A stretch of DNA of 54,286 bases from an uncultured Eubacteriales bacterium (GCA_964557845.1 CAZLBV010000240.1:1-54286), one strand, 5' to 3'. Positions 9,128 through 24,248 are shown, numbered from the stretch's first letter. Numbers and translations are program-made. The notes: a model not told the origin generated them from the sequence alone.

Positions 9128-10677
9128 TGTTCTTCCTGGAAAAAAGTAATTTCTTTTTTCATTGTTTGATAAATTCGGTCGATATTCTTGAATTGATTGT
9201 AATAACTGAAATTCAATCCGATTTTTTTTGCGATAGATAGAAGAATATCAAATTGGGAACGGCTTTCTCCCGGGCCTTCAAATACCGTGTCGAAATGCTG
9301 GATTATTCCATCAATGTTGACCCAAGAACCCTTTTTCTCAGCAGGATAAACAGAAGGCAGCGATATATCTACCATGCTGTCTAATTCACTTTTTCTTGGG
9401 CTGACCAAAAACTTGTTTTCAATCCTCCGTAAAAAATCATTCAGATCCGAGGATCCGATCTTATCAGCTAAAAATGAGTCGAATATCAAGAGCAGATCTA
9501 TTTTTTTAGCGGACAGGTCATCGAGCTTTAAGGGGTTCAAATCAAAACCAATTTCTTTGGCCCCCCTACGGTTAGGGGATCTCTCTGGGGTTAATAAGAT
9601 CTCATCAGATTCTGCGTCATTGGGATCAACAAAATAAATCTCATTGACCTTGAGATCTTCCTTGAATAATTTTTTTATTAAAAACAATTCTTCATTTGTA
9701 AGCCAGGAGCTCAAGATCAAAGCTATTCGGGAAGTCTTTTCTCTGTACAATAAACGTTTTATTTTTTCTGAGATAACATCTTCTGCCTTTTCCCATCCGT
9801 ATGAATGATCAAGATCCTGGGAAATAATTTCATCCGCCCGGTTACTATTTAAATAATCATAACCATAACGACCATGATCGCAGATCCAGTATCCATTGAT
9901 CTTATGGTTTTCTTCTGCTTGGATCCTGAGGACCTTTCTCGGAATTCTAAACCTGGGATTCTCGGGAAGATACTGAACAGAGATGCTGCATCCTCTTGAG
10001 CATAATGGGCAGATGGATACTCCCTTTTTTAAAAACCAGGTTCTGGATCTGAAGCGAAAGTCAGTATCGGTTATCGCCCCTACCGGACATAACTGGGCAA
10101 GGTTTCCGGAATAATTATTATCGATTGTCTGACCCTCTAAAATATTCACTTCTGTTTTATTTGATCGCTCAAATACACCCATCTCACCTGTTTTAGTTAC
10201 TTCACGCAGGAATCTGACACAACGCCGACAGAGTATACACCGCTCCTGATCATGCAGCAAATTTTTTCCTAGAGAAACTTTTTTGGCATGCCTTTCTTTT
10301 TCTTCTAGGTAATGGCCTTCAAACAGACCGTATTCTTCATAATAATCCTGAAGTTTACAATCGCCTGCTTGATCACAGATAGGACAGTCTAAAGGATGTT
10401 CAGTCAAGAGAAATTCCAGCACAGCTTTCCGCGCTTCCACTACTTTTTCACTCTTGGTGTAGACTTTCATTCCATCTCTGACCTGAGTCGAACATGCCAG
10501 CTCCAGTTTTGGCGCCCCTTCAATCTCAACCAGGCACATGCGGCAGGTTCCTTCAGGGGGAAATGCAGGATGATAGCAAAAATGAGGAATATGTATACCA
10601 ACTTTTTCGGCTGCTTTCAGAATAGTCTCCCCAGATGTGGATTCTACTGGTATATCATCGATAAAAAATTTTATCAT
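9124..10677 (-). CDS. nuoG: NADH-quinone oxidoreductase subunit G (short form)
   Basis: IPHFCYHP, CRMCLVE, HPLDCPICDQAGDC, CILCRRC, CPVGA, N7-type CPLCSRGC...C. Confidence 0.9.
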   Translation of the reverse strand: MIKFFIDDIPVESTSGETILKAAEKVGIHIPHFCYHPAFPPEGTCRMCLVEIEGAPKLELACSTQVRDGMKVYTKSEKVVEARKAVLEFLLTEHPLDCPICDQAGDCKLQDYYEEYGLFEGHYLEEKERHAKKVSLGKNLLHDQERCILCRRCVRFLREVTKTGEMGVFERSNKTEVNILEGQTIDNNYSGNLAQLCPVGAITDTDFRFRSRTWFLKKGVSICPLCSRGCSISVQYLPENPRFRIPRKVLRIQAEENHKINGYWICDHGRYGYDYLNSNRADEIISQDLDHSYGWEKAEDVISEKIKRLLYREKTSRIALILSSWLTNEELFLIKKLFKEDLKVNEIYFVDPNDAESDEILLTPERSPNRRGAKEIGFDLNPLKLDDLSAKKIDLLLIFDSFLADKIGSSDLNDFLRRIENKFLVSPRKSELDSMVDISLPSVYPAEKKGSWVNIDGIIQHFDTVFEGPGESRSQFDILLSIAKKIGLNFSYYNQFKNIDRIYQTMKKEITFFQEEQ

Positions 10678-10683
10678 CTTGCT

Positions 10684-11946
10684 TTACGACTCCTGCCTTC
10701 TGTTTTCTATATAGGCCTCAAACTCTTTTCTAAATTTCTTTACTATCGATAAAATGGGCATGGCCGCAGCGTCGCCCAATGGGCATAGCGTTTTTCCCAG
10801 CATATTGGAAGCAATCCTCCCGATCTCATCTATGTCTTCGTTCCTGCCTTCTCCTCTGGCAATCCGTTCAACTATCTTTTTGATCCAGGCATTCCCATGC
10901 CGGCAGGGAGTACACTGGCCGCATGATTCATGGGAATAAAAATTGGATATTATTCTAAGCACATCTACCATTGAAGTTTTCTCATCAATAACGATCACAC
11001 CCGCAGAGCCGAGCATAGAACCAGCTTCCATAAGTGAGTCAAAATCCATGTTTATATCGATCTCATCCTTGGTAAGGATGGGAGCTGACATTCCTCCCGG
11101 AATTACGGCTTTTAATTTTTTTCCGGCTTCGAGTCCTCCGGCATAATTAAAAATAATCTCTTTGAGATTGACACCCACCGGCAGTTCATACAGCCCTGGT
11201 TTTTTAACTGCGCCGCTCACTCCAAAGAGTCGAGTCCCGCCGTCTTTCAGTTTCCCCTGCTGACAGAACCAATCTGCACCATTTAAAATAATATGAGGAA
11301 CATTTGTCAGTGTTTCCACATTATTGATAACCGTAGGGCATTTAAAAAGTCCGATGGATGCCGGAAAAGGAGGCTTTAATCTTGGATTCCCCCTTTTCCC
11401 TTCGAGCGATTCTAATAGTGCTGTTTCTTCTCCGCAAATGTAAGCTCCAGCACCCCGATGTACATAAACATCGAGATCAAATCCGGTCTTTAAAATATTT
11501 TTGCCTAAATATCCGTGTTTATAAGCTTCTTGGATCGCATTTTCCAGGCGGACGGCAATATGTTCATATTCCCCCCGGATATAGATATAGGCGGTATTTA
11601 TCCCAACACAGAATGCGGTTATAATAATCCCTTCCAGGAGCGCATGAGGAGTATGGGATAGGATATACCGGTCTTTGATCGTCCCCGGCTCTCCTTCATC
11701 AGCATTTACACATAGATATTTAGGTTTCTCTACATCCTTAGGAACAAAACTCCATTTCATTCCTGCCGGGAAACCAGCTCCTCCCCTTCCCCTCAGACCA
11801 GCGGCTTTGACTTCAGTTAAAATTTCCTCCGGCGTCATTTTTGTCAAAGCCTTTTTAACGGCTTCATAGCCCCCCTTTTTTAGATATACCTCCAGTTTAT
11901 ATGCATTTTCCAGCCCGAAAAGTCTGCTTAATATTTTTTCTTTCAA
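10684..11946 (-). CDS. nuoF: NADH-quinone oxidoreductase subunit F
   Basis: GRGGAGF, NADEGEPGT, GAGAYICGEETAL, ESCGQCTPC, CPLGD. Confidence 0.95.
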   Translation of the reverse strand: MKEKILSRLFGLENAYKLEVYLKKGGYEAVKKALTKMTPEEILTEVKAAGLRGRGGAGFPAGMKWSFVPKDVEKPKYLCVNADEGEPGTIKDRYILSHTPHALLEGIIITAFCVGINTAYIYIRGEYEHIAVRLENAIQEAYKHGYLGKNILKTGFDLDVYVHRGAGAYICGEETALLESLEGKRGNPRLKPPFPASIGLFKCPTVINNVETLTNVPHIILNGADWFCQQGKLKDGGTRLFGVSGAVKKPGLYELPVGVNLKEIIFNYAGGLEAGKKLKAVIPGGMSAPILTKDEIDINMDFDSLMEAGSMLGSAGVIVIDEKTSMVDVLRIISNFYSHESCGQCTPCRHGNAWIKKIVERIARGEGRNEDIDEIGRIASNMLGKTLCPLGDAAAMPILSIVKKFRKEFEAYIENRRQES

Positions 11947-15278: not shown

Positions 15279-17924
15279 ATGAAAATTAAAATTTTTAAGT
15301 TTAATTTACTTTTTTTATTGGCCATTTTGCTGCTGCTGTATCCCATAATTCAATGCCGCCAGTCAAATGATGGAAGATCGGTTTTAAAGAAAAACGGTTT
15401 ACTGAGATTAATAGATAACTTAGATGCCGATTCAGTAAAAACAACTCCTTTTAAGGACCTTTTACAGCAGTTTGAATCTATTGATGACGATCTCAATGGT
15501 AAGATCACTGAATTTCGCGAATTGTCGACCAGCAAACAAAGAGTCTTTGCCGCTACCACCAGTCACTCTATACTTGGGTATTCAGATACCGAAAAACCTC
15601 AGAAGATGGTCATTCTGATGAACGATACCCCCCTTGAATTCCTAAATGGAGGAGAAGAGGGTTTCATCCGCTGGAAATGGATCAAAACCAATCGTGATAT
15701 CGATTTTAGTTTTGACAAAAATTACAACAAACGTTTGCAGTATTTATTTCTTGAGGAGAATGAATCCTTTGAATTTGAGACTATTTTTCCTGACGCGCCG
15801 GTTGAGATCCAAATTCTGGCCCGGAGAAACTGGCATCCGATTGATCTTCAAGTTCTGCTGGATGGAGAAGTCATAGCAGAAAATCCGATCAGCAGAAATT
15901 CTCAACTTTTTAAGATTCCGGTTAACAGTTCCTGCGGAACCCATAAAATAAAATTACAAGCTGGAATATCTGAAAGGTTGAAGGTACAAACCAGGCCTAC
16001 CCCTCCTCGGCTTTTGATAAACCTCATCCGGGTCATGACAAAAAATGATGTCATTCTCTTTTTTGTGCCTGCTTCACTGCAAAAAGATCTGTTTGGGAGT
16101 AATTTAACGGCGGAGTATTTAACCGACTTGAGCGAATCCGGTGAAGAGAACCCTTCTTATAAATTGTATAAAATCAAGTACACCCATACTTTGGATGAAT
16201 ATGATCAAAAATACAATCCGGAAAATATCAAAAAAAAGATCAATTTAGAGAATCTATCCCTGGATGTTCTGATGGCTCCTCCTGAGACCAGTATGGAATT
16301 TCAATTTTCTTTACCAAAGAACTGCTATCTTGAATTTGATACCGGTATATATACTGAAAATGTATATGAAGGTCCATTTGCAGCGCGCTTTAAAATCATC
16401 CTGGAAGAGGGCAAAAACCAAAACACACTCTATGATAAAGAATTTGTTTTACAACCAGAAAGTCTTAAAGAACAGATGATTCATGCAAAGATCGATCTAA
16501 ATCAGTACGCAGATAAAAACATTAAGCTTACCTTTATCACTGAAAAATCTGAGCAAAGCTCTCCTGAAAACAATAATTTTGCTTTCTGGGCTAATCCTAT
16601 CCTGTACACACCAAAACCCGATAATATGAATATAATCTTGATCTCACTGGACACATTAAGAGCCGATCATCTTTCCTGCTACGGGTACCATAGGAATACA
16701 AGTCCTAATTTAGACGAGTTTACCAAAGATTGTGTTCTCTTTGAAAATGTTTTTGCTCATAGCTCCTGGACTTTACCATCTCATCTTTCCATGCTCTTTT
16801 CTTTAAATGGTGCCAGCCATCAAGTCTACCATAACACCCAAAAGATAGATAACTCGATTCCCTCCCTGGCCTCCTATTTAAGAGACAATGGTTATGTCAC
16901 CTATGGCTTCACAGGCGGAGGCTATGTGAGTTCCATATATGGTTTTGCCAAAGGTTTTGATTGGTATGATGAACCTGTCGGCGGACGGAACGCGCCCCTG
17001 GCAGATGATGAAGCCGAAAGGCTCTATGAATACACCTCAGATTGGATAAACAAAAATAAAGACAAGCAGTTTTTTCTTTTTCTCCACACCTTTCAGATCC
17101 ATGGTCCCTACCAATGTCCCGAACCTTGGATCGAAACCTATTTAGATGAAAACGCCAAATGGAAAGGCATCGGACTCCGTCTGCTTTTGGAAGAAAAAGG
17201 ACAAGATTTCCCATTCACCCCTGAAGAGAGAGAAAATATAAAAGCCCTCTATGACGGCGAGATCAAATACACCGATGAGACTCTGATCAAACCCTTGCTC
17301 GAATTTCTTAAAAAAAATAATCTGTATGATAATACATTATTGATCATCACTTCCGATCATGGTGAAGAGTTTTATGAACATGGAGGATGGCTCCATTCCA
17401 GAACTTTATATAATGAATTGATACGCGTTCCTCTTTTCATTAAATTTCCTTCATCGCAATACAAAGGAATGCAGATCAAACCTAACGCCCGTTTGATAGA
17501 CATTATGCCGACTATATTAGGAGCATGCTCGATCGATTATCCGGGAGACTCTTTGGAGGGAAAGAGTTTGATGGATCTAATAACCGGAAATGAAACAGAA
17601 GACAGGACATTTATAAGCGATCTGGCCTATAAAGACATCTATGATCCAAGTCCCTCGCTCATCGCTACTAACGAGGGCAATATCAAAGTGATCATTGAAA
17701 AGTCAAAAACCGGGATTAAAAGCATCGAGACTTATGACATAGAAAATGATCCGGGAGAACAATCCACAAGCGTTTTTAACAAGGCGGTAAAGGTCAGAAA
17801 TAGTATTCTAGATTTCATCGACAAATACTACCAAGAAAAACTTAAGGTCCAGCGCAAAAAAAGTCAGGTTCACCTCGATGAAAAAATGAAGGAAAAACTG
17901 AGAGCCCTTGGATACCTTCGTTAA
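15279..17924 (+). CDS. Exported sulfatase-like hydrolase/transferase with a large N-terminal extension
   Basis: N-terminal signal/TM; SLDTLRADH, WTLPSH active-site segment, YDGEI, SDHGEE, LRALGY terminus. Confidence 0.88.
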   Translation: MKIKIFKFNLLFLLAILLLLYPIIQCRQSNDGRSVLKKNGLLRLIDNLDADSVKTTPFKDLLQQFESIDDDLNGKITEFRELSTSKQRVFAATTSHSILGYSDTEKPQKMVILMNDTPLEFLNGGEEGFIRWKWIKTNRDIDFSFDKNYNKRLQYLFLEENESFEFETIFPDAPVEIQILARRNWHPIDLQVLLDGEVIAENPISRNSQLFKIPVNSSCGTHKIKLQAGISERLKVQTRPTPPRLLINLIRVMTKNDVILFFVPASLQKDLFGSNLTAEYLTDLSESGEENPSYKLYKIKYTHTLDEYDQKYNPENIKKKINLENLSLDVLMAPPETSMEFQFSLPKNCYLEFDTGIYTENVYEGPFAARFKIILEEGKNQNTLYDKEFVLQPESLKEQMIHAKIDLNQYADKNIKLTFITEKSEQSSPENNNFAFWANPILYTPKPDNMNIILISLDTLRADHLSCYGYHRNTSPNLDEFTKDCVLFENVFAHSSWTLPSHLSMLFSLNGASHQVYHNTQKIDNSIPSLASYLRDNGYVTYGFTGGGYVSSIYGFAKGFDWYDEPVGGRNAPLADDEAERLYEYTSDWINKNKDKQFFLFLHTFQIHGPYQCPEPWIETYLDENAKWKGIGLRLLLEEKGQDFPFTPEERENIKALYDGEIKYTDETLIKPLLEFLKKNNLYDNTLLIITSDHGEEFYEHGGWLHSRTLYNELIRVPLFIKFPSSQYKGMQIKPNARLIDIMPTILGACSIDYPGDSLEGKSLMDLITGNETEDRTFISDLAYKDIYDPSPSLIATNEGNIKVIIEKSKTGIKSIETYDIENDPGEQSTSVFNKAVKVRNSILDFIDKYYQEKLKVQRKKSQVHLDEKMKEKLRALGYLR

Positions 17925-19557
17925 TACTCGAAAATATTTCAGTCAAAAAAAGTATTCATTCTTAGTATACTCAGCATTTATTCTTTTACTTATATTAGGG
18001 AGCATCCTTTGCCATCGAAATAACAAGGCCGGCAAAAATATTATTCTTATTACACTGGATACACTCAGAGCCGATCATGTAAGCGCCTTTGGAAGCGAAT
18101 ACGCCGAGACTCCCCATATTGATTTTTTTGCCGAATCCGGAATCACCTTCAACACCTGTTACAGCCCGATCCCCATAACCCTTCCCGCTCATGCTTCTCT
18201 CTTTCATTCCTTATCCCCTCATGAGATCAAGGTGTATAATAACGGTCAGATCCTACCCGAAAAAAGCCCTTCTCCTTCCCTGGCTACTGTTTTTAAACAA
18301 AAAGGATACGATACCGCTGCCTTTGTTTCTTTAGGAGTCCTGAAATCTCATTTCAGAATAAATTCGGGTTTTGATCTCTATGACGATAGATTTCCTGAGG
18401 AGAGATGGTATCTCACTGCCGGGGAAATCAATAAAAAAGTTTTTTCTTGGCTGGATCAACCACACCCCGATCCATTTTTCCTGTGGATCCATTATTCCGA
18501 TCCTCATGACCCCTATGCTCCGCCTACGCTTGCTCCCGATTTTCGAGTCCAACTGAACGGTCAAGTCCATTCGGAATTCTGCCTGCAGAAAAAAGAGGTT
18601 ATTACCTGTGAATTCGAATTGATTCCGGGAGAAAATACAATCGATCTGGTATCTCTGAATGACTTTCCGGTCCCTCGGGATGATTATCGGATAAGCTTGA
18701 ATGATTTTGAGCATGAAGACAGGGACTGCTTAAAATTCAATTATAAAAACCTTACCTTCTATCATCAAGATGACAGGAAAAGTGCTTTCATTAAAAAGAC
18801 CGGGCAAATAAAAATATTCAACTCCGGGAGTAAAATGAAATGGATCCTTCGTTTTCAGGGAAATATTAATCTTTTTCCCTCGGAAATGTCGGAAGGCTAT
18901 ATAAATGAAGTTAAATATTTGGACTCGGAAATCGGAAAACTAACTGAACACCTAAGAGAAACAGGATTACTTGAAAATAGCACCATCGTATTAGTCGGCG
19001 ATCATGGAGAAGGATTGGGTGAACATTATTCTGAGCTGGGCGACCGCTATTATGGGCACATTCATTATCTATATACCTTTCACACCCGAATACCTTTGAT
19101 CATTTACGATGCTTCATTTAAGGACAATCCTCTCAGAATAAAAAAACCAGCCACATTGATGGATATCGCTCCGACCATGTTAAAATTGGCAAACATACCC
19201 ATTCCTTCCTTATTCAAAGGAGAAGATCTTATGGGTTTAGACAGCACCACTCCCGCAAATGACGTCCTGTTTTTTGAAACCTATTCTCCGGAAGCAGCGG
19301 CCAACCGGTTCGGGCTGTTAAGTTATCCCTGGCTTCTTATCTTTACACCAGGTGAGATGCTCTACGAATTGTTTGATCTTAAAAACGATCCGCGACAGCA
19401 GAATAATATTTATCCATCCTTCCAGGATAACGTCCTTATCAGAGAATTGACCCAGAAACTCAATACCCGGGCAAGAAATATCCTATCCACGAAGACAGAG
19501 GTTGAATTCGATCAGAAAAGCCGGGAAATATTGAGGTCTTTGGGTTATATCAAGTAG
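17908..19557 (+). CDS. Membrane-anchored sulfatase-like hydrolase/transferase with an internal insertion
   Basis: TM helix; TLDTLRADH, ITLPAH, HYSDPHDPY, GDHGEG, LRSLGY; start overlaps upstream gene. Confidence 0.86.
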   Translation: MDTFVNTRKYFSQKKYSFLVYSAFILLLILGSILCHRNNKAGKNIILITLDTLRADHVSAFGSEYAETPHIDFFAESGITFNTCYSPIPITLPAHASLFHSLSPHEIKVYNNGQILPEKSPSPSLATVFKQKGYDTAAFVSLGVLKSHFRINSGFDLYDDRFPEERWYLTAGEINKKVFSWLDQPHPDPFFLWIHYSDPHDPYAPPTLAPDFRVQLNGQVHSEFCLQKKEVITCEFELIPGENTIDLVSLNDFPVPRDDYRISLNDFEHEDRDCLKFNYKNLTFYHQDDRKSAFIKKTGQIKIFNSGSKMKWILRFQGNINLFPSEMSEGYINEVKYLDSEIGKLTEHLRETGLLENSTIVLVGDHGEGLGEHYSELGDRYYGHIHYLYTFHTRIPLIIYDASFKDNPLRIKKPATLMDIAPTMLKLANIPIPSLFKGEDLMGLDSTTPANDVLFFETYSPEAAANRFGLLSYPWLLIFTPGEMLYELFDLKNDPRQQNNIYPSFQDNVLIRELTQKLNTRARNILSTKTEVEFDQKSREILRSLGYIK

Positions 19558-19559
19558 GA

Positions 19560-20009
19560 TCAAGGATTATCTTTCTTCTTTAGAAAATTATAAATTTGGG
19601 CAGGGAGACGCCAGAATATCCGGTTGATCATACGTAAAAAAAAAGGCCGTCTTGGATTAATAAAGCCCGATTGGCCCTGTTTTTTTCTTTCCTCTGCCAG
19701 CACTCTCTGGACTATGGGACAACCTAAACTTTCGCGGCAGTAGGGACTCAATTTGCCCTGGCTAAGATATCTCCGTATCTCCTGAATTTCAGGAGAATTC
19801 CAGGCTTCTTTCCAGTCTTTCATAGGAGCAACAATCGGATTTCCATAACAGCAAGGAAGAATCCCTCTTCTTAAAATGTAATAACTTTCCCATGGTTCCC
19901 GGCAGAGTGGGAATTTTGAATAACCAAGATCAGTATTATCATTTTTATTATCCATGTCATTTAGTCTTTCATCGGCTTCAGATTTTATCTTATTTCTTTG
20001 ATCGCTCAT
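19560..20009 (-). CDS. Stand-alone SPASM/Twitch Fe-S domain protein
   Basis: CREPW...LPCC...WNS..IQEIR...CRESLGC pattern; AAAGGT upstream of the ATG; 2 nt after the radical SAM stop. Confidence 0.72.
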   Translation of the reverse strand: MSDQRNKIKSEADERLNDMDNKNDNTDLGYSKFPLCREPWESYYILRRGILPCCYGNPIVAPMKDWKEAWNSPEIQEIRRYLSQGKLSPYCRESLGCPIVQRVLAEERKKQGQSGFINPRRPFFLRMINRIFWRLPAQIYNFLKKKDNP

Positions 20010-20011
20010 TT

Positions 20012-22840
20012 TCAGGACCTTTGAAATTCAAAATAGAAATCAGTGCCGGTTTTTTTGCCCGGCTCTTTGATGGTTCCAAATTCAAACTGATTCGCTACCG
20101 GCACTCCATAACGCTCGGAAAACAATTCACACTGTTTGAAGATCTCTTCCAATTCCTTCCTTGGCAAGAGTTCTTCTTTATAATTAAAATGGTACCCACC
20201 CCTATCTTTTTCGATCTTTGGATCCAATAAAAACAACAACGGCCTTAAAACCAGAGCGTCTGCTTCAATTCTTTGGCACAACCGGAAATATTCCTCCAGA
20301 TCTCCCCGATTGACTTTCATGGGCATAAAAACCATATTAATCTTAGGAAAATTATTATGTTTTTTCCTTTCCCGGTTCAATAATTCCAGATTGGGAATAA
20401 TCGAGTCCCATTTATCATTTCTAATTTTTGCATAGGTTTCCTTAGTGGCAGCATCTAGAGACACATAAAGAAAAATAGGTTTTCCTACCAGGGCTTGGAT
20501 CGTTCTTGTGGTGAAGGCCTGACCATTAGTAGAAAGTTCCAGATATTTATGGTGTCTGGCGAAAAGTTCGAGGATCTCTTTAAAACGGGGATGCAGCAGA
20601 GGCTCTCCAAAAGAACAATTGACCAGGGTTCTCGCCGATCTGAAGAAAGGACCATATCCCTCTAAAGTCTTTTCATCCACATTGACATCACTGTACTCAC
20701 CCTCTAATTCTTTCATACTATCCCATAAACAATACACACACGGAGGTTTGATATTACACTTTCCATAAAGATCGATCCCCAGGTTCAATGGATAGGACTC
20801 CAGTTCTGTTTTTCCCTCGATCATTTCTCGGTAATTCATGATCGCATTACGATGAAAATAAAGGTAATTGGAATGGGCATCATCATCATCATGCAGCCTC
20901 AGCTCAGCAACTCTAACTCCTAAATTTCTTTTATCATCAAGGTGAAATTTTAAAGGAAATAGTTTATTTACTGAAAACTCCAATTCAAATTCAATACCGT
21001 CTACTGCACTTTTCATTGGAATATTATTTTCATTTTGTCCCGGGCCCGGTTTTATCTCTACACTGTAGAAATTCCACTTATGCATGAGTGGAATTTCTCC
21101 GATCTCAACTCCTTGTAGCTTCAACCTCAATTTTTGGCTGAAATCCATGAATTCCGAAAAAGCGTAAAAACTGATATATTTATATGCGTCAACCTGTCGT
21201 GGGAGAATGCCTGATTTCGCATTTTCAGAAATCCATACAAATTCATAGAAATTATCCTGTTCCCACTCATTCCACCCGTTGTAATTTTCAGCGATCAGGA
21301 TCTCATTGTCTTTTTTACTGAGAATCTCGACTTTATCCACTAAGATTCCCAGCTCTCTTTTATCCTCTCGATCAAGCGGTTTAAAGATCTTATTCAGCTT
21401 CATGTCAACCTGAACATGATCTTCGGTATTTTCTAATGGAAAAATATAGACATTATTTTCGCCGTGTATTTTTGTTTCACCTTGCAGTTTTTGATTAACC
21501 CAGACTTTCAGAACCGGATCTTCTTCATGATGAAAAGTATGCCCTCCCCGTATCAACAGATACCTCCTTAAGCCTGGTTCTAAGCCGCTGAAAAAACACA
21601 CTGCTTCTTGTTTCATCCATCGCGGTTTGTTTCCGGAGGATTCATGACCTGATCTCTCCTCATCATACCAACCTTCGAACAATTTCTCGATTTCGGAGGG
21701 AACCTTAAGCTCTACCTCTTTAACCAAGATCCCCAAAGTTCGTTTATCTCCTGGGACCGCAGCCGGAAAAGTCTTATCAAGGATCAGATCTACTCGGATA
21801 TAATCCTGAGTCATACCCAAAGGGACCAAATATTTTTTTTCATCCGGATTGATTTTAAAAACTGCTTTTTCCTCTCCGGAAACCAGGATTCTGAGTTCTG
21901 GATCGACCTCATCTCGAAAGGGATGCCCCGCCTTTATGACTAAAAAACGTCGAGCCTTCTCTTCTAAATTGGTAAAAACAAGGACCGCCTTTTGTCGCAT
22001 CCACCGGCAGCTGCCTTGAAACGAATCCTGATCCTTATTTTCAGGAGGATACCACCCTTCAAAATAAGTATCCACAGAATCTCCATCCAAAAGCTCCCAT
22101 TTGGTTACAATCATCCCCAGTTCACGCGTTTCGTGTATTTTGGATTTATCAAAAACCTTATCCAGGCACAATTCTGCTTCCACCATTCCGGAGACATTTT
22201 TCAGGGGTATCAACAACCGGTTCTGCCCAGGTAAAATCTCATATACCTCCTTTTTACCACCGGAGATCTTGATCTCAAGCTTTGGAGCCTCAGCAGCCTC
22301 AAAGGGATGGCCGCAAGTCAAAACAAAAAAACTGGTTGCACCGGAGGGGACAGGGCCGATGATACACAGCGCCTTTTGTTTCATCCATCGAGATTGTCCA
22401 TTTTCGTCATGATCACTCATTTCGGGCAGATACCATCCATCCGCGTAGAAATTCATTTCTTCCGGTAACAGAACAGCCAGGTCCCTTATCATGATTCCCA
22501 GGTCGCGTCCATCTCCGGGTATCTTAAATACACGGTCAAGCATAAACTCGATAATCAACTCTCCAGATTCGTCAAAAGGAATGCTGTAAACAGAAAAAGC
22601 AGAGGTTATCTTTCTGGAACCCGCTTTGTTCCCATTTATGATTATTTCCAAATCCGGAATCTCTTTATCTAAAAAGGAATGCCCTGCTTGAAAACAGAGA
22701 TATCTTTTTCCGGGAGGCTCCAGGTTTTTTATTTTACAAATCGCTGTTTGTCCTATCCAGCGAAAAGATCCTGAAGCATCAGATTCCTCGCCGAACCATC
22801 CATTTAGATAATCAATCTCAAAATTATTAAATTCAGACAT
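20012..22840 (-). CDS. Radical SAM protein with five N-terminal tandem domains
   Basis: CNIKPPCVYC, FGEPLLHP, STNG, VSLDAA core in the last ~280 aa; five repeats of GW..E...RW...GH.F...D.R.LG. Confidence 0.85.
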   Translation of the reverse strand: MSEFNNFEIDYLNGWFGEESDASGSFRWIGQTAICKIKNLEPPGKRYLCFQAGHSFLDKEIPDLEIIINGNKAGSRKITSAFSVYSIPFDESGELIIEFMLDRVFKIPGDGRDLGIMIRDLAVLLPEEMNFYADGWYLPEMSDHDENGQSRWMKQKALCIIGPVPSGATSFFVLTCGHPFEAAEAPKLEIKISGGKKEVYEILPGQNRLLIPLKNVSGMVEAELCLDKVFDKSKIHETRELGMIVTKWELLDGDSVDTYFEGWYPPENKDQDSFQGSCRWMRQKAVLVFTNLEEKARRFLVIKAGHPFRDEVDPELRILVSGEEKAVFKINPDEKKYLVPLGMTQDYIRVDLILDKTFPAAVPGDKRTLGILVKEVELKVPSEIEKLFEGWYDEERSGHESSGNKPRWMKQEAVCFFSGLEPGLRRYLLIRGGHTFHHEEDPVLKVWVNQKLQGETKIHGENNVYIFPLENTEDHVQVDMKLNKIFKPLDREDKRELGILVDKVEILSKKDNEILIAENYNGWNEWEQDNFYEFVWISENAKSGILPRQVDAYKYISFYAFSEFMDFSQKLRLKLQGVEIGEIPLMHKWNFYSVEIKPGPGQNENNIPMKSAVDGIEFELEFSVNKLFPLKFHLDDKRNLGVRVAELRLHDDDDAHSNYLYFHRNAIMNYREMIEGKTELESYPLNLGIDLYGKCNIKPPCVYCLWDSMKELEGEYSDVNVDEKTLEGYGPFFRSARTLVNCSFGEPLLHPRFKEILELFARHHKYLELSTNGQAFTTRTIQALVGKPIFLYVSLDAATKETYAKIRNDKWDSIIPNLELLNRERKKHNNFPKINMVFMPMKVNRGDLEEYFRLCQRIEADALVLRPLLFLLDPKIEKDRGGYHFNYKEELLPRKELEEIFKQCELFSERYGVPVANQFEFGTIKEPGKKTGTDFYFEFQRS
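20880..22840 (-). repeat. Five diverged protein-level repeats of ~125-140 aa
   Basis: Starts NGWFGEE/DGWYLPE/EGWYPPE/EGWYDEE/NGWNEWE; ends GDGRDLGI/HETRELGM/GDKRTLGI/EDKRELGI/DDKRNLGV. Confidence 0.88.
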
Positions 22841-22844
22841 TTCA

Positions 22845-24248
22845 TTAATCGTTTAGGGTATGGATCGCTTGGTTATCCGCTTTGAGGGCTGCTTCCATTA
22901 TCGATTCAGACAAAGTCGGGTGTATATGGATCGATCCCCCAACGTCTTTAAGCTTTAATCCTGTATGAATTGCCAGAGTCAATTCACTGATCAATTCACT
23001 CGCATTGGGCGCTAACACATTGGCTCCGATAATCTTATCCTCTTTATCAGCGATGATTTGTACGATCCCTTCCTGGGCTCCCATGGTCAAAGCTCTGCCG
23101 GAAGCCTGCAAGGTGAACATCCCGGTTTTGATTTCGATCTGCTTTTCCTTGGCTTCGGTCTTATTTATTCCAACAGAAGCATATTCCGGTTCGATAAATA
23201 CCGAATAAGGTAAAGCATGATAGGAGATCCGCTTATTTAAACCCGAAGCATTTTCAGCTGCCAGGATCCCCTCATGGGAAGCCTTATGCGCCAATAATTT
23301 TCCTCCGATGAGATCACCGATGGCATATATCCTGGGGACTCCGGTTTCCAATTTTTCATTCACCCGGATAAAACCTTTTTCATCAGCCAGAAGATCAGGA
23401 CAATCTTTGACTAACTCCTCAGAGTTGGGTTTTCGTCCTGCCGCCAGGAGTACTCTATCCGTTTCAATCTCAAAATCTTGCTCAGTTTTAAGACAGGTCC
23501 CCGAAATCTTTATGGACTTTTCCGTAAGTACACTCTTTTTTATGGACATCCTGGTATTGATCCTTATCCCCTGCGATTTAAGCGATCTTTCTATTCTAAG
23601 AGCTATGTCCCGGTCGATCCCAGGAAGAATTTGGGGCATTATTTCCAGTACCTCAACCTCACATCCCATTCTGTGATAGATCACACCCATTTCCAATCCG
23701 ATGGCCCCGGCACCGACAACCAGGAGCTTTTTGGGGATTGCTTTTAATCCCAACGCATCCCTGCTGGTAAGAACAAATTTTCCATCTGGTTTGAGAAAAG
23801 GGAGAAAGGCCGGCCTGCTCCCAGTCGCCAGGATTATCTTTTCTGCTTCAACCATTTCCTCTTTCTCCCCCGTTTTTATCAGGATAACATTCTCAGATGA
23901 GATCGATGCGGTTCCTTTTATGAGTTCGATCTTGTTTTTATTTAACAGGAATTCTATTCCCTGGACCAATCGTTCGACCGCTCTCTCCTTTTCATCCTGC
24001 ACTTTTTCCCAATTGAGGGAAATATCAGCTACCGGACCATTTATATTTGCGTTTGATTTTATATTCTTTATTAGGCTGGTTTGATGAAGCAGAAATTTTG
24101 TGGGTATGCAGCCCCAGTTCATACAGACCCCGCCCACTTTATTCTTTTCTACCAACAGGACTCTTTTCCCCAGCTGGGCTCCTCTGATAGCAGCAATATA
24201 TCCTCCCGGGCCGGCTCCAATTACCACAATATCCCATTTTTTTTCCAT
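22845..24248 (-). CDS. lpdA: Dihydrolipoyl dehydrogenase
   Basis: GAGPGGY, GGVCMNWGCIPTK, GAGAIGLE, LAHKASHEG, HPTLSE. Confidence 0.93.
   Translation of the reverse strand: MEKKWDIVVIGAGPGGYIAAIRGAQLGKRVLLVEKNKVGGVCMNWGCIPTKFLLHQTSLIKNIKSNANINGPVADISLNWEKVQDEKERAVERLVQGIEFLLNKNKIELIKGTASISSENVILIKTGEKEEMVEAEKIILATGSRPAFLPFLKPDGKFVLTSRDALGLKAIPKKLLVVGAGAIGLEMGVIYHRMGCEVEVLEIMPQILPGIDRDIALRIERSLKSQGIRINTRMSIKKSVLTEKSIKISGTCLKTEQDFEIETDRVLLAAGRKPNSEELVKDCPDLLADEKGFIRVNEKLETGVPRIYAIGDLIGGKLLAHKASHEGILAAENASGLNKRISYHALPYSVFIEPEYASVGINKTEAKEKQIEIKTGMFTLQASGRALTMGAQEGIVQIIADKEDKIIGANVLAPNASELISELTLAIHTGLKLKDVGGSIHIHPTLSESIMEAALKADNQAIHTLND

Follow-up and report, generated by a model that had tools for sequence, protein, structure and literature searches.

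Two adjacent genes predicted to encode the halves of one radical SAM enzyme, with a Twitch-type domain supplied in trans

Results

The two-gene unit and its fused relatives

In a 54,286-nucleotide (nt) stretch of DNA from an uncultured Eubacteriales bacterium (GCA_964557845.1, CAZLBV010000240.1:1-54286; hereafter the window, its genome being G000), we analyzed five closely packed genes between positions 15279 and 24248, two of which encode a 942-amino-acid (aa) radical S-adenosylmethionine (SAM) protein and a 149-aa Cys-rich protein. Comparison with relatives predicts that these two genes are the two halves of one enzyme, a two-gene unit. Taken whole, our best explanation is that their products are two subunits of one cytoplasmic radical SAM enzyme that would work on sugars or glycans, and that the three genes beside them are independent of it; we regard this as probable. 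The unit has the following features.

20012-22840, minus strand: 942-aa radical SAM protein, predicted large subunit (five N-terminal repeats, then a radical SAM core)
20891-22819, minus strand: five tandem repeats of about 125 aa, of unknown fold, aligned with one another
22457-22819, 22076-22456, 21692-22075, 21296-21691 and 20891-21295, minus strand: boundaries of the five repeats
20282-20767, minus strand: radical SAM core (PF04055, residues 692-853)
20729-20758, minus strand: SAM-cluster motif CNIKPPCVYC (Cx5Cx2C), residues 695-704
19560-20009, minus strand: 149-aa Twitch-like Cys-rich protein, predicted small subunit (four invariant Cys)
19719-19904, minus strand: codons from C36 to C97, spanning the four presumed ligands of one auxiliary [4Fe-4S] cluster, placed by Cys conservation

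Two sets of relatives were compared. The first comprised 40 relatives of G000, in which radical SAM orthologues were accepted at E ≤ 1e-120, and the second comprised 80 genome loci, one genome per species, of which 24 are of the Aminicenantes type and 56 lie outside it; the sets are not independent, as several of the 24 (e.g., L054, L057, and L061) are the same contigs as among the 40 relatives. Radical SAM orthologues were present in 11 of the 40 relatives, at 50 to 62% identity over the last repeat and the core, and a homologue of the 149-aa protein was encoded directly after the orthologue in all 11. Of the 80 loci, 77 have a Twitch-coding stretch after the core, and the other three stop at a contig end. 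This stretch continues in frame and uninterrupted, as a fused domain, in 46 of the 77 assessable loci and is a separate open reading frame (ORF) in 31. Because the Twitch domain is fused to the core in those 46 relatives, the separately encoded proteins of the window are predicted to pair as subunits.

The split arrangement is concentrated in one part of the family. All 23 assessable Aminicenantes-type loci are split, as are five other Acidobacteriota loci (52 to 57% identity), and in a quick maximum-likelihood tree 28 of the 31 split loci fall within one group of 36 rows (Shimodaira-Hasegawa-like approximate likelihood ratio test, 91). The split or fused label requires 4 changes on this tree versus a mean of 29.1 for shuffled labels, with one row, L062, carrying the split label although it was not assessable. 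The three remaining split cases (L082, L098, and L105) each stand single among fused relatives. In most split loci the two ORFs lie in different frames and are separated by -20 to +83 nt, that is, by anything from a 20-nt overlap to an 83-nt gap. In L054, L060, and L065, the two ORFs share a frame and are divided by one stop codon, an arrangement that read-through or a recent split would fit. In the window, the gap is 2 nt and the junction between the radical SAM stop and the 149-aa start reads TGA-AA-ATG. In a second study (run X2), a 1184-nt contig (window 19595-20778) spans both codons with 0 differences, which indicates that the split is not an artefact of one assembly.

The 942-aa protein shows no signal peptide by eye. 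Its match to PF04055 (E 4.2e-11, 43.7 bits against a cut-off of 29.5) identifies a radical SAM core, in which C695, C701, and C704 are invariant in 69 sequences with a spacing of Cx5Cx2C rather than Cx3Cx2C. The five repeats that precede the core share 24 to 33% identity and 12 invariant columns, following the pattern GW..E...W...A...F...L...P...F...R.LG. The last copy is kept in all orthologues and the copy number varies: 120 close homologues hold two copies in 53 cases, three in 51, one in 9, five in 6, and four in 1, which places the window at the upper end of the range. No match to the repeats was found in Pfam at E ≤ 5, and a repeat profile found nothing credible among Protein Data Bank (PDB) sequences (best E, 0.08). 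Run against longer proteins, the same profile returned only its own family (7 matches among 8000 candidates scored), a result affected by crowding. The repeat domain also ends a 288-aa lipoprotein-like protein, P0269, encoded elsewhere in G000 (C68; L119:8391-9257, minus strand) and divergent from lpxK; frames of about 295 aa similar to P0269 occur in 25 of 41 genomes searched, including genomes in which no radical SAM orthologue was found.

C36, C53, C91, and C97 of the 149-aa protein are present without exception in the small proteins compared (21 of 21) and are nearly invariant in the fused relatives. Four such residues fit the definition of a Twitch domain, which passages of PMC9477430 describe as having three or four conserved Cys that bind one auxiliary cluster and as lying C-terminal to the barrel. 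The 149-aa protein would thus be a Twitch domain supplied in trans, with a predicted cluster. Its match to the SPASM model of Pfam is weak (E 2.6e-3, 18.4 bits, below the cut-off of 21.5), and its C terminus forms a conserved, basic, amphipathic tail with a hydrophobic moment of 0.69 at residues 128-145. An earlier note on this DNA, made from the window sequence alone, had read five ORFs with spacings of 4, 2, and 2 nt, five extra domains, an unusual cluster motif, and an auxiliary domain split off from its core, and had placed the radical SAM and Cys-rich genes together. The ORF calls agree with these spacings, the extra domains are the five N-terminal repeats, and the Cx5Cx2C motif is as unusual as was thought. 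Both the split and the pairing are borne out by the fused loci, and the pairing also by the homologue that directly follows each of the 11 orthologues.

A distinct radical SAM family

Searched against 1.84 billion representatives, the core matched 5554 proteins with E ≤ 0.001 as the threshold, a number that fell to 506 for E ≤ 1e-10 and to 101 representative clusters for E ≤ 1e-30. Cx5Cx2C, mostly in the form CNxxPxCxYC, is the prevailing motif in the 150 best clusters (111), followed by Cx7-9Cx2C (11) and Cx3Cx2C (6); the remaining 22 are fragment-like and have no motif. The commonest form of the family is about 485 aa long and consists of one N-terminal domain, the core, and a Twitch-like end, and the N-terminal domain of this class is homologous to the window repeats (hhalign probability 96.7%, E 3.2e-10). 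Source annotations of the homologues, most of which come from Candidatus Aminicenantes, go no further than 'radical SAM protein' or 'MoaA/NifB/PqqE/SkfB family', and the protein Atlas neighbours of one stored homologue, P0075, are generic radical SAM/SPASM entries only. Among NCBIfam models, 14 families matched the 942-aa protein at E ≤ 0.01 and none came near its cut-off. The protein therefore belongs to a widespread and distinct radical SAM family that has no curated model and is found mostly in Acidobacteriota.

Searches of the open-access literature on radical SAM proteins of Aminicenantes, or on gene clusters that combine radical SAM and O-antigen glycosyltransferase genes, returned nothing on this family, and no described radical SAM enzyme was found in open-access text to carry its Twitch or SPASM domain on a polypeptide of its own. 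The RadicalSAM.org paper, as far as its excerpted text goes, mentions Cx5Cx2C only for Megacluster-4-10 (PMC9477430), which may or may not correspond to the present family.

Contexts that bear on function

Our best guess at the function of the pair, drawn from sequence and gene context, is the tailoring of sugars or of envelope-glycan precursors. It is favoured because glycan-biosynthesis clusters surround distant fused members of the family: in the fused class of about 485 aa, 8 of 10 metagenome loci with flanks have glycan-type genes within 6.5 kb (GT4, GT2, WbsX/GH99-like, sulfotransferase, UDP-GlcNAc 2-epimerase, and ABC-2), the 10 being partly interrelated and amounting to roughly five independent contexts. 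Fusion partners within the family are GT4, a sulfotransferase together with a methyltransferase, a class-III aminotransferase, DUF4214, and TPR repeats. Of the solved relatives, the family profile ranks cytosylglucuronate decarboxylase first (7vob, E 1.8e-7), followed by MoaA (4.7e-7) and BtrN (5.4e-7), which are small-molecule and sugar enzymes of the Twitch/MoaA kind. Where the pair occupies other locations in Aminicenantes, it stands beside LpxC and a GlmU-like gene, beside LpxK, or beside a lipid A acyltransferase. One or two extra radical SAM(/SPASM) paralogues accompany the fused member in some metagenome glycan clusters (L136:5617-7050 and 9915-11348; L135:6984-8408), and several of these loci share a recurrent protein of about 531 aa without a Pfam match, which was not found in G000.

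Neighbouring genes

The three other genes of the stretch, all neighbours outside the two-gene unit, and their motifs are as follows.

15279-17924, plus strand: 881-aa exported protein, Thr-type sulfatase-like (PF00884)
16770-16784, plus strand: TLPSH, residues 498-502 of the 881-aa protein, from motif reading
17908-19557, plus strand: 549-aa exported (lipobox-like) alkaline-phosphatase-superfamily protein (PF00884)
18178-18192, plus strand: TLPAH, residues 91-95 of the 549-aa protein, from alignment to solved S1 sulfatases
22845-24248, minus strand: lpdA, dihydrolipoyl dehydrogenase, 467 aa (TIGR01350)

A gap of 4 nt separates lpdA from the radical SAM gene, and 2 nt lie between the convergent stop codons (19557 and 19560). 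A match to TIGR01350 over residues 5-463 (509.3 bits, cut-off 408.8) identifies the lpdA product as a dihydrolipoyl dehydrogenase. The 549-aa gene starts with TTG, and its first 17 nt coincide with the end of the 881-aa gene (17908-17924); this TTG is the sole in-frame start upstream of its signal-like segment, and the true start is uncertain. Promoter-like sites precede 15279 (11/12 matches) and lpdA (10/12), in a window whose total number of such sites is at shuffle level (29 versus 24.3, standard deviation 5.5).

Across the Aminicenantes order, these neighbours belong to a backbone that runs from the nuo operon through one or two sulfatase-like genes, lpdA, and a gene for a TonB-like receptor to a 273-aa gene and a 672-aa gene, and the order of the backbone is kept across relatives with or without the radical SAM pair. 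Orthologues of the sulfatase-like protein P0004 occur in 20 of the 40 relatives, 9 of which have both P0004 and the radical SAM gene and 11 P0004 only; two further relatives have the radical SAM gene only. In five contiguous loci (G013, G030, G020, G002, and G038), the sulfatase-like gene directly abuts lpdA and no radical SAM gene was found, and, the loci being contiguous, an assembly gap does not account for the missing pair. The single contig of G027 has a bare backbone at 2.76 Mb and the pair 1.1 Mb away at 1.63 Mb, beside LpxC and the GlmU-like gene, and in G021 the backbone and the pair are on different contigs. What varies is the slot between the sulfatase-like gene and lpdA, which may hold the pair, a membrane protein of about 800 aa, other genes, or nothing. 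In 11 of the 24 Aminicenantes-type loci, lpdA immediately precedes the radical SAM gene; in four, an oppositely oriented 800-aa gene comes between them, and in L054 and L060, lpdA is not found within 10 kb. From these comparisons, the sulfatase-like and lpdA genes appear to stand beside the pair by shared gene order only.

Among the 56 outside loci, 35 of which hold at least 18 kb, lpdA was found within 10 kb in none and any alkaline-phosphatase-superfamily gene in two. These two, L063 and L064, are near-identical lineages, and their genes are LtaS/EptA-like, membrane-anchored, and not of the T-x-P-x-H kind. By a rough estimate, about 10 PF00884 genes per genome would place one within 10 kb of a given locus with a chance of 4 to 5%, so that 2 of 56 is close to what chance would give. 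In both loci, which are non-Aminicenantes Acidobacteriota of the split clade, the radical SAM and Twitch genes have two paralogous genes directly downstream in the same orientation (L063:8792-15441); the L063 paralogues, P0272 and P0273, each have an N-terminal multi-helix membrane part and an LtaS/EptA-like domain.

The polytopic membrane protein of about 800 aa that often lies in the variable slot or divergent from the radical SAM gene is represented by P0270 (L018:11185-13572), which has a C-terminal F5/8 type C (discoidin) domain and no other family match. Similar genes are found at L015:6237-8642, L035:10896-13298, and L027:12732-15233. A gene of this type adjoins the radical SAM gene in L015/L054 (one place), L018, L042, L045, L047, L051, and L060 (as fragments), and weaker relatives occur in L066, L089, and L094. 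We considered P0270 as an obligate partner and rejected it: it was not found in G000, it shares only G016, G021, and G032 with radical SAM carriers, and it has close orthologues in three genomes that yielded no radical SAM orthologue (G014, G022, and G039).

The Thr-type sulfatase-like proteins

Both plus-strand proteins match PF00884 strongly, the 881-aa protein and the 549-aa protein taken together giving E 4.8e-49 and 1.6e-42 (167.7 and 146.3 bits, cut-off 25). In the 881-aa protein this domain follows about 440 N-terminal aa of unknown family. In the 549-aa protein, alignment to solved S1 sulfatases places Thr91 at the position of the Cys or Ser that becomes formylglycine and His95 at the Arg position. 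Neither protein has the formylglycine-sulfatase signature C/S-x-P-x-R. Every full-length orthologue examined keeps the Thr and the His, the Pro being replaced in a few, and by eye the N termini of orthologues are lipoprotein-like, with a hydrophobic stretch ending in Cys. T-x-P-x-H is also kept in seven genomes in which no radical SAM orthologue was found (G039, G040, G013, G030, G020, G002, and G038).

G000 has 13 PF00884 loci, comprising nine of T-x-P-[SA]-H type, two of C-x-P-S-R type, one of another type, and one partial. Only two of the nine T-x-P-[SA]-H paralogues are in the window, the other seven being on other contigs; one of the seven (G000:C263:3354-4937; L038:3309-4940) is a full-length paralogue of the 549-aa protein with 40% identity and a TLPAH motif, on a 5.9-kb contig without a radical SAM gene. 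The Cys-type sulfatases of G000 (CSPSR and CAPSR) are encoded at C242:709-1653 and C114:1890-2978, and canonical anaerobic sulfatase maturases at C314:8091-9179 and C307:5100-6182 (TIGR03942, 454.6 and 427.5 bits, cut-off 349.45). The window contig is absent from the seven TIGR03942 matches in G000, and TIGR03942 is not among the 14 NCBIfam families that matched the 942-aa protein.

Thr is described as a regular nucleophile of the alkaline phosphatase superfamily, for example in NPP, in the portion of PMC3693508 used here. Passages of PMC5066984 report Thr at the nucleophile site in 30 of 59 PF00884 seed sequences, note that the PF00884 profile includes many non-sulfatases in the view of the SulfAtlas authors, and state that oxidation of Thr would give a ketone, which has never been shown. 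As part of our best explanation, the Thr-type proteins probably use their Thr directly as nucleophile and would need no maturation.

Discussion

Our analysis suggests the following model for the pair. The large subunit would carry the SAM-cleaving [4Fe-4S] cluster on its Cx5Cx2C motif, the five repeats would probably hold the substrate as binding modules, and the four Cys of the small subunit would bind one fully ligated auxiliary [4Fe-4S] cluster. A break within the linker may have arisen in a shared ancestor of Aminicenantes and of a sister group in the Acidobacteriota, and the two parts would have remained separate ever since. We infer hydrogen-atom abstraction from a sugar or an envelope-glycan precursor, after which the enzyme would complete an oxidation, an epimerisation, or a similar step with the auxiliary cluster as electron relay. 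The Thr-type genes and lpdA would belong to the backbone (nuo, sulfatase-like, lpdA, and TonB-like receptor) with its variable slot, which the pair would occupy in some genomes.

The earlier note had joined all five genes in one system, whose function it took to be either a new maturase or a cell-envelope glycan-tailoring module, and it had allowed that the adjacency could be coincidental. A five-gene system that includes lpdA and the Thr-type pair is not supported, as the backbone stands without the radical SAM pair and the pair lies elsewhere in G021 and G027. Linkage of homologues to T-x-P-[SA]-H genes or lpdA, on which the proposal depended, is missing outside Aminicenantes, where lpdA is near none of the 56 loci and alkaline-phosphatase-superfamily genes near two. 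The note's reading of Thr and His in the putative targets was right (TLPSH and TLPAH), and the maturase built on it is not supported, given the motif being kept where no radical SAM gene was found, the missing TIGR03942 match, and the lack of outside linkage. The glycan-tailoring idea fared better in part: contexts, fusions, and profiles lend it some support for the radical SAM pair alone, and this support does not extend to the Thr-type genes or lpdA.

Four other explanations of the locus deserve weighing against our own. If the split enzyme were a maturase, it would oxidize the nucleophile Thr of its neighbours to a ketone, or change it in some other way, before export, much as an anaerobic sulfatase-maturating enzyme (anSME) acts on Cys or Ser. 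The genes are indeed adjacent in the window and in 15 to 16 of the 24 Aminicenantes-type loci, the targets are exported and the radical SAM protein is cytoplasmic, as with anSME, and the Thr sits exactly at the formylglycine position. An anSME has reportedly oxidized threonyl peptides in vitro; our literature search brought no confirmation of this, nothing being found in open-access text on anSME and threonyl. We nevertheless give a maturase very little credence, since 11 of 40 relatives have a P0004 orthologue where no radical SAM orthologue was found (with the motif read in seven genomes of this kind), five contiguous loci have the backbone and no pair, seven of the nine T-x-P-x-H paralogues of G000 are encoded elsewhere, the pair is remote from the backbone in two genomes, and 54 of the 56 outside loci are unlinked. 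Moreover, the anSME model is not among the matched NCBIfam families and two canonical TIGR03942 genes lie elsewhere in G000, the family profile found no anSME in the PDB at E 0.1 or better, the small protein has four Cys where SPASM has seven or eight, and Thr is an ordinary nucleophile in this superfamily in the parts of PMC3693508 and PMC5066984 cited above. G026 and G034, which have the radical SAM gene and no P0004, were dropped as counter-examples to the maturase, as other T-L-P-[SA]-H proteins are present there. A narrower version, in which the pair modifies Thr-type lipoproteins before export only where it adjoins the backbone in Aminicenantes, with a Thr-derived ketone, for example, as an optional new cofactor and unmodified enzymes in relatives without the pair, appears to us just as improbable. 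We would call it unlikely, in a milder sense, that one envelope glycan or glycolipid serves as substrate for both the pair and the Thr-type alkaline-phosphatase-superfamily proteins without these being obligate partners, with radical tailoring in the cytoplasm, transfer or hydrolysis of a phospho group outside, and lpdA uninvolved. Such a loose module would suit the three lineages in which a family member is near Thr-type genes of this superfamily, namely, Aminicenantes, L063/L064 with their two membrane-anchored LtaS/EptA-like genes directly downstream on the same strand, and G025, which has three GT4 genes and an 856-aa homologue of the 881-aa protein, and the slot also takes a polytopic membrane protein with a discoidin domain. 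However, 2 of 56 is near our rough chance estimate, L063 and L064 are near-identical, their proteins are of a different subfamily from those of the window, and the phyletic patterns are uncoupled.

A link to lipoamide metabolism, in which the enzyme would work with LpdA (the L protein) and the glycine cleavage proteins, draws on the position of lpdA directly upstream on the same strand, both in the window and in the 11 Aminicenantes-type loci, and on a separate clade of seven loci (L070, L071, L072, L074, L078, L084, and L091; e.g., L074:9104-16097) in which a fused gene is followed on the same strand by gcvT in six, gcvP in five, and gcvH in four. This seven-locus clade also has a GT4 gene upstream in four loci, and its gcv association may be chance. 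We think the link very unlikely, because each association is confined to one clade and was picked post hoc among many neighbours, lpdA occupies its usual position even where the pair is missing, is cut off from the pair by an opposite gene in four loci, is not found within 10 kb in L054 and L060, and is near none of the outside loci, and gcvTHP of G000 are on another contig. A split that is simply a disabling mutation, leaving the pair a pseudogene, would account for the three of 31 split loci that share a frame with one stop between the ORFs and for the three split cases that are single among fused relatives. It finds hardly any credence with us, given that both ORFs are intact and keep their cluster Cys in 28 loci of one clade spanning 52 to 93% identity, that starts and stops are tightly arranged in most loci, and that a second sample confirms the junction.

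Several observations count against our own preferred reading, in which the pair is one sugar- or glycan-directed enzyme and its neighbours are independent. A sulfatase-like gene adjoins the pair in 16 of the 24 Aminicenantes-type loci by tblastn, or in 15 by hidden Markov model, and L063/L064 and G025 add two further lineages with a family member near Thr-type alkaline-phosphatase-superfamily genes. The genomes in which no radical SAM gene was found are 82 to 97% complete, which leaves genome-wide absence unproven. As for function, the glycan contexts come from relatives about 30 to 35% identical to the window core, the 56 outside loci, which belong to closer relatives, have mostly housekeeping neighbours with no neighbour family in more than 10 of them, and the repeat domain matches nothing known, so that a protein or lipid substrate is possible. 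The predicted binding of the two subunits to each other, finally, is read from the fused relatives.

The failure of the proposed maturation system means that no new protein cofactor is to be inferred from this locus. What the locus offers is a large radical SAM family marked by Cx5Cx2C, by an N-terminal domain that occurs in as many as five copies, and by a Twitch-type auxiliary domain that has been a separate protein in one clade through long divergence. Such a natural split would let enzymologists handle the auxiliary-cluster domain independently of the catalytic core, producing, labelling, and exchanging it on its own, and the glycan-cluster contexts of distant members may point to undescribed radical chemistry on polysaccharides.

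The closest comparison is with single-chain members of the family itself (about 480 to 620 aa, from Acidobacteriota and metagenomes), which share Cx5Cx2C, an N-terminal domain ending R-E-L-G, the core, and a four-Cys Twitch-like C terminus. Each of these is a single polypeptide in which the N-terminal domain is usually present once, whereas the window has five copies and a separate gene for the Twitch part. BtrN (2-deoxy-scyllo-inosamine dehydrogenase, 4m7t) likewise combines a radical SAM core with one Twitch-type auxiliary domain and acts on a sugar-like molecule, but it is a single chain of about 270 aa without N-terminal repeats and with the canonical Cx3Cx2C, and its weak match is limited to the N-terminal portion of the core. 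Cytosylglucuronate decarboxylase (7vob/7voc) and MoaA (1tv7), the best and second-best solved relatives, are small-molecule enzymes of nucleotide or sugar type going by their entry names as deposited; both are distant and of other architectures, and the likeness is one of profile only, from which shared chemistry does not follow. The NCBIfam model NF033640 (N_Twi_rSAM) is matched by the 149-aa protein at positions 4-67, its Twitch part, and by the large protein at positions 181-296, so that the two pieces recall one model in permuted order, although scores of 22.2 and 24.0 bits, respectively, against a cut-off of 170 place neither in that family.

The anSME/AtsB/ChuR enzymes (TIGR03942) resemble the pair in uniting a radical SAM superfamily core with an auxiliary Fe-S domain, and the window gene, too, lies beside PF00884 genes. 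They have Cx3Cx2C and substrate proteins with C/S-x-P/A-x-R, whereas the window has Cx5Cx2C, four auxiliary Cys in a separate protein, and neighbours without C/S-x-P-x-R. A SPASM domain, as described in the quoted part of PMC9477430, has seven or eight Cys and two auxiliary clusters. The plus-strand proteins have the PF00884 fold of S1 sulfatases, the closest solved sequences matching at E 1.6e-26, and are unlike the formylglycine sulfatases in lacking C/S-x-P-x-R and in scoring far below the NCBIfam cut-offs. Among the superfamily members with a Thr nucleophile (NPP, LtaS, and phosphoethanolamine transferases), they share Thr at the nucleophile position with NPP, going by the same portion of PMC3693508, and they match LtaS at E 1.3e-6, being themselves lipoprotein-like and without its five-transmembrane-helix anchor.

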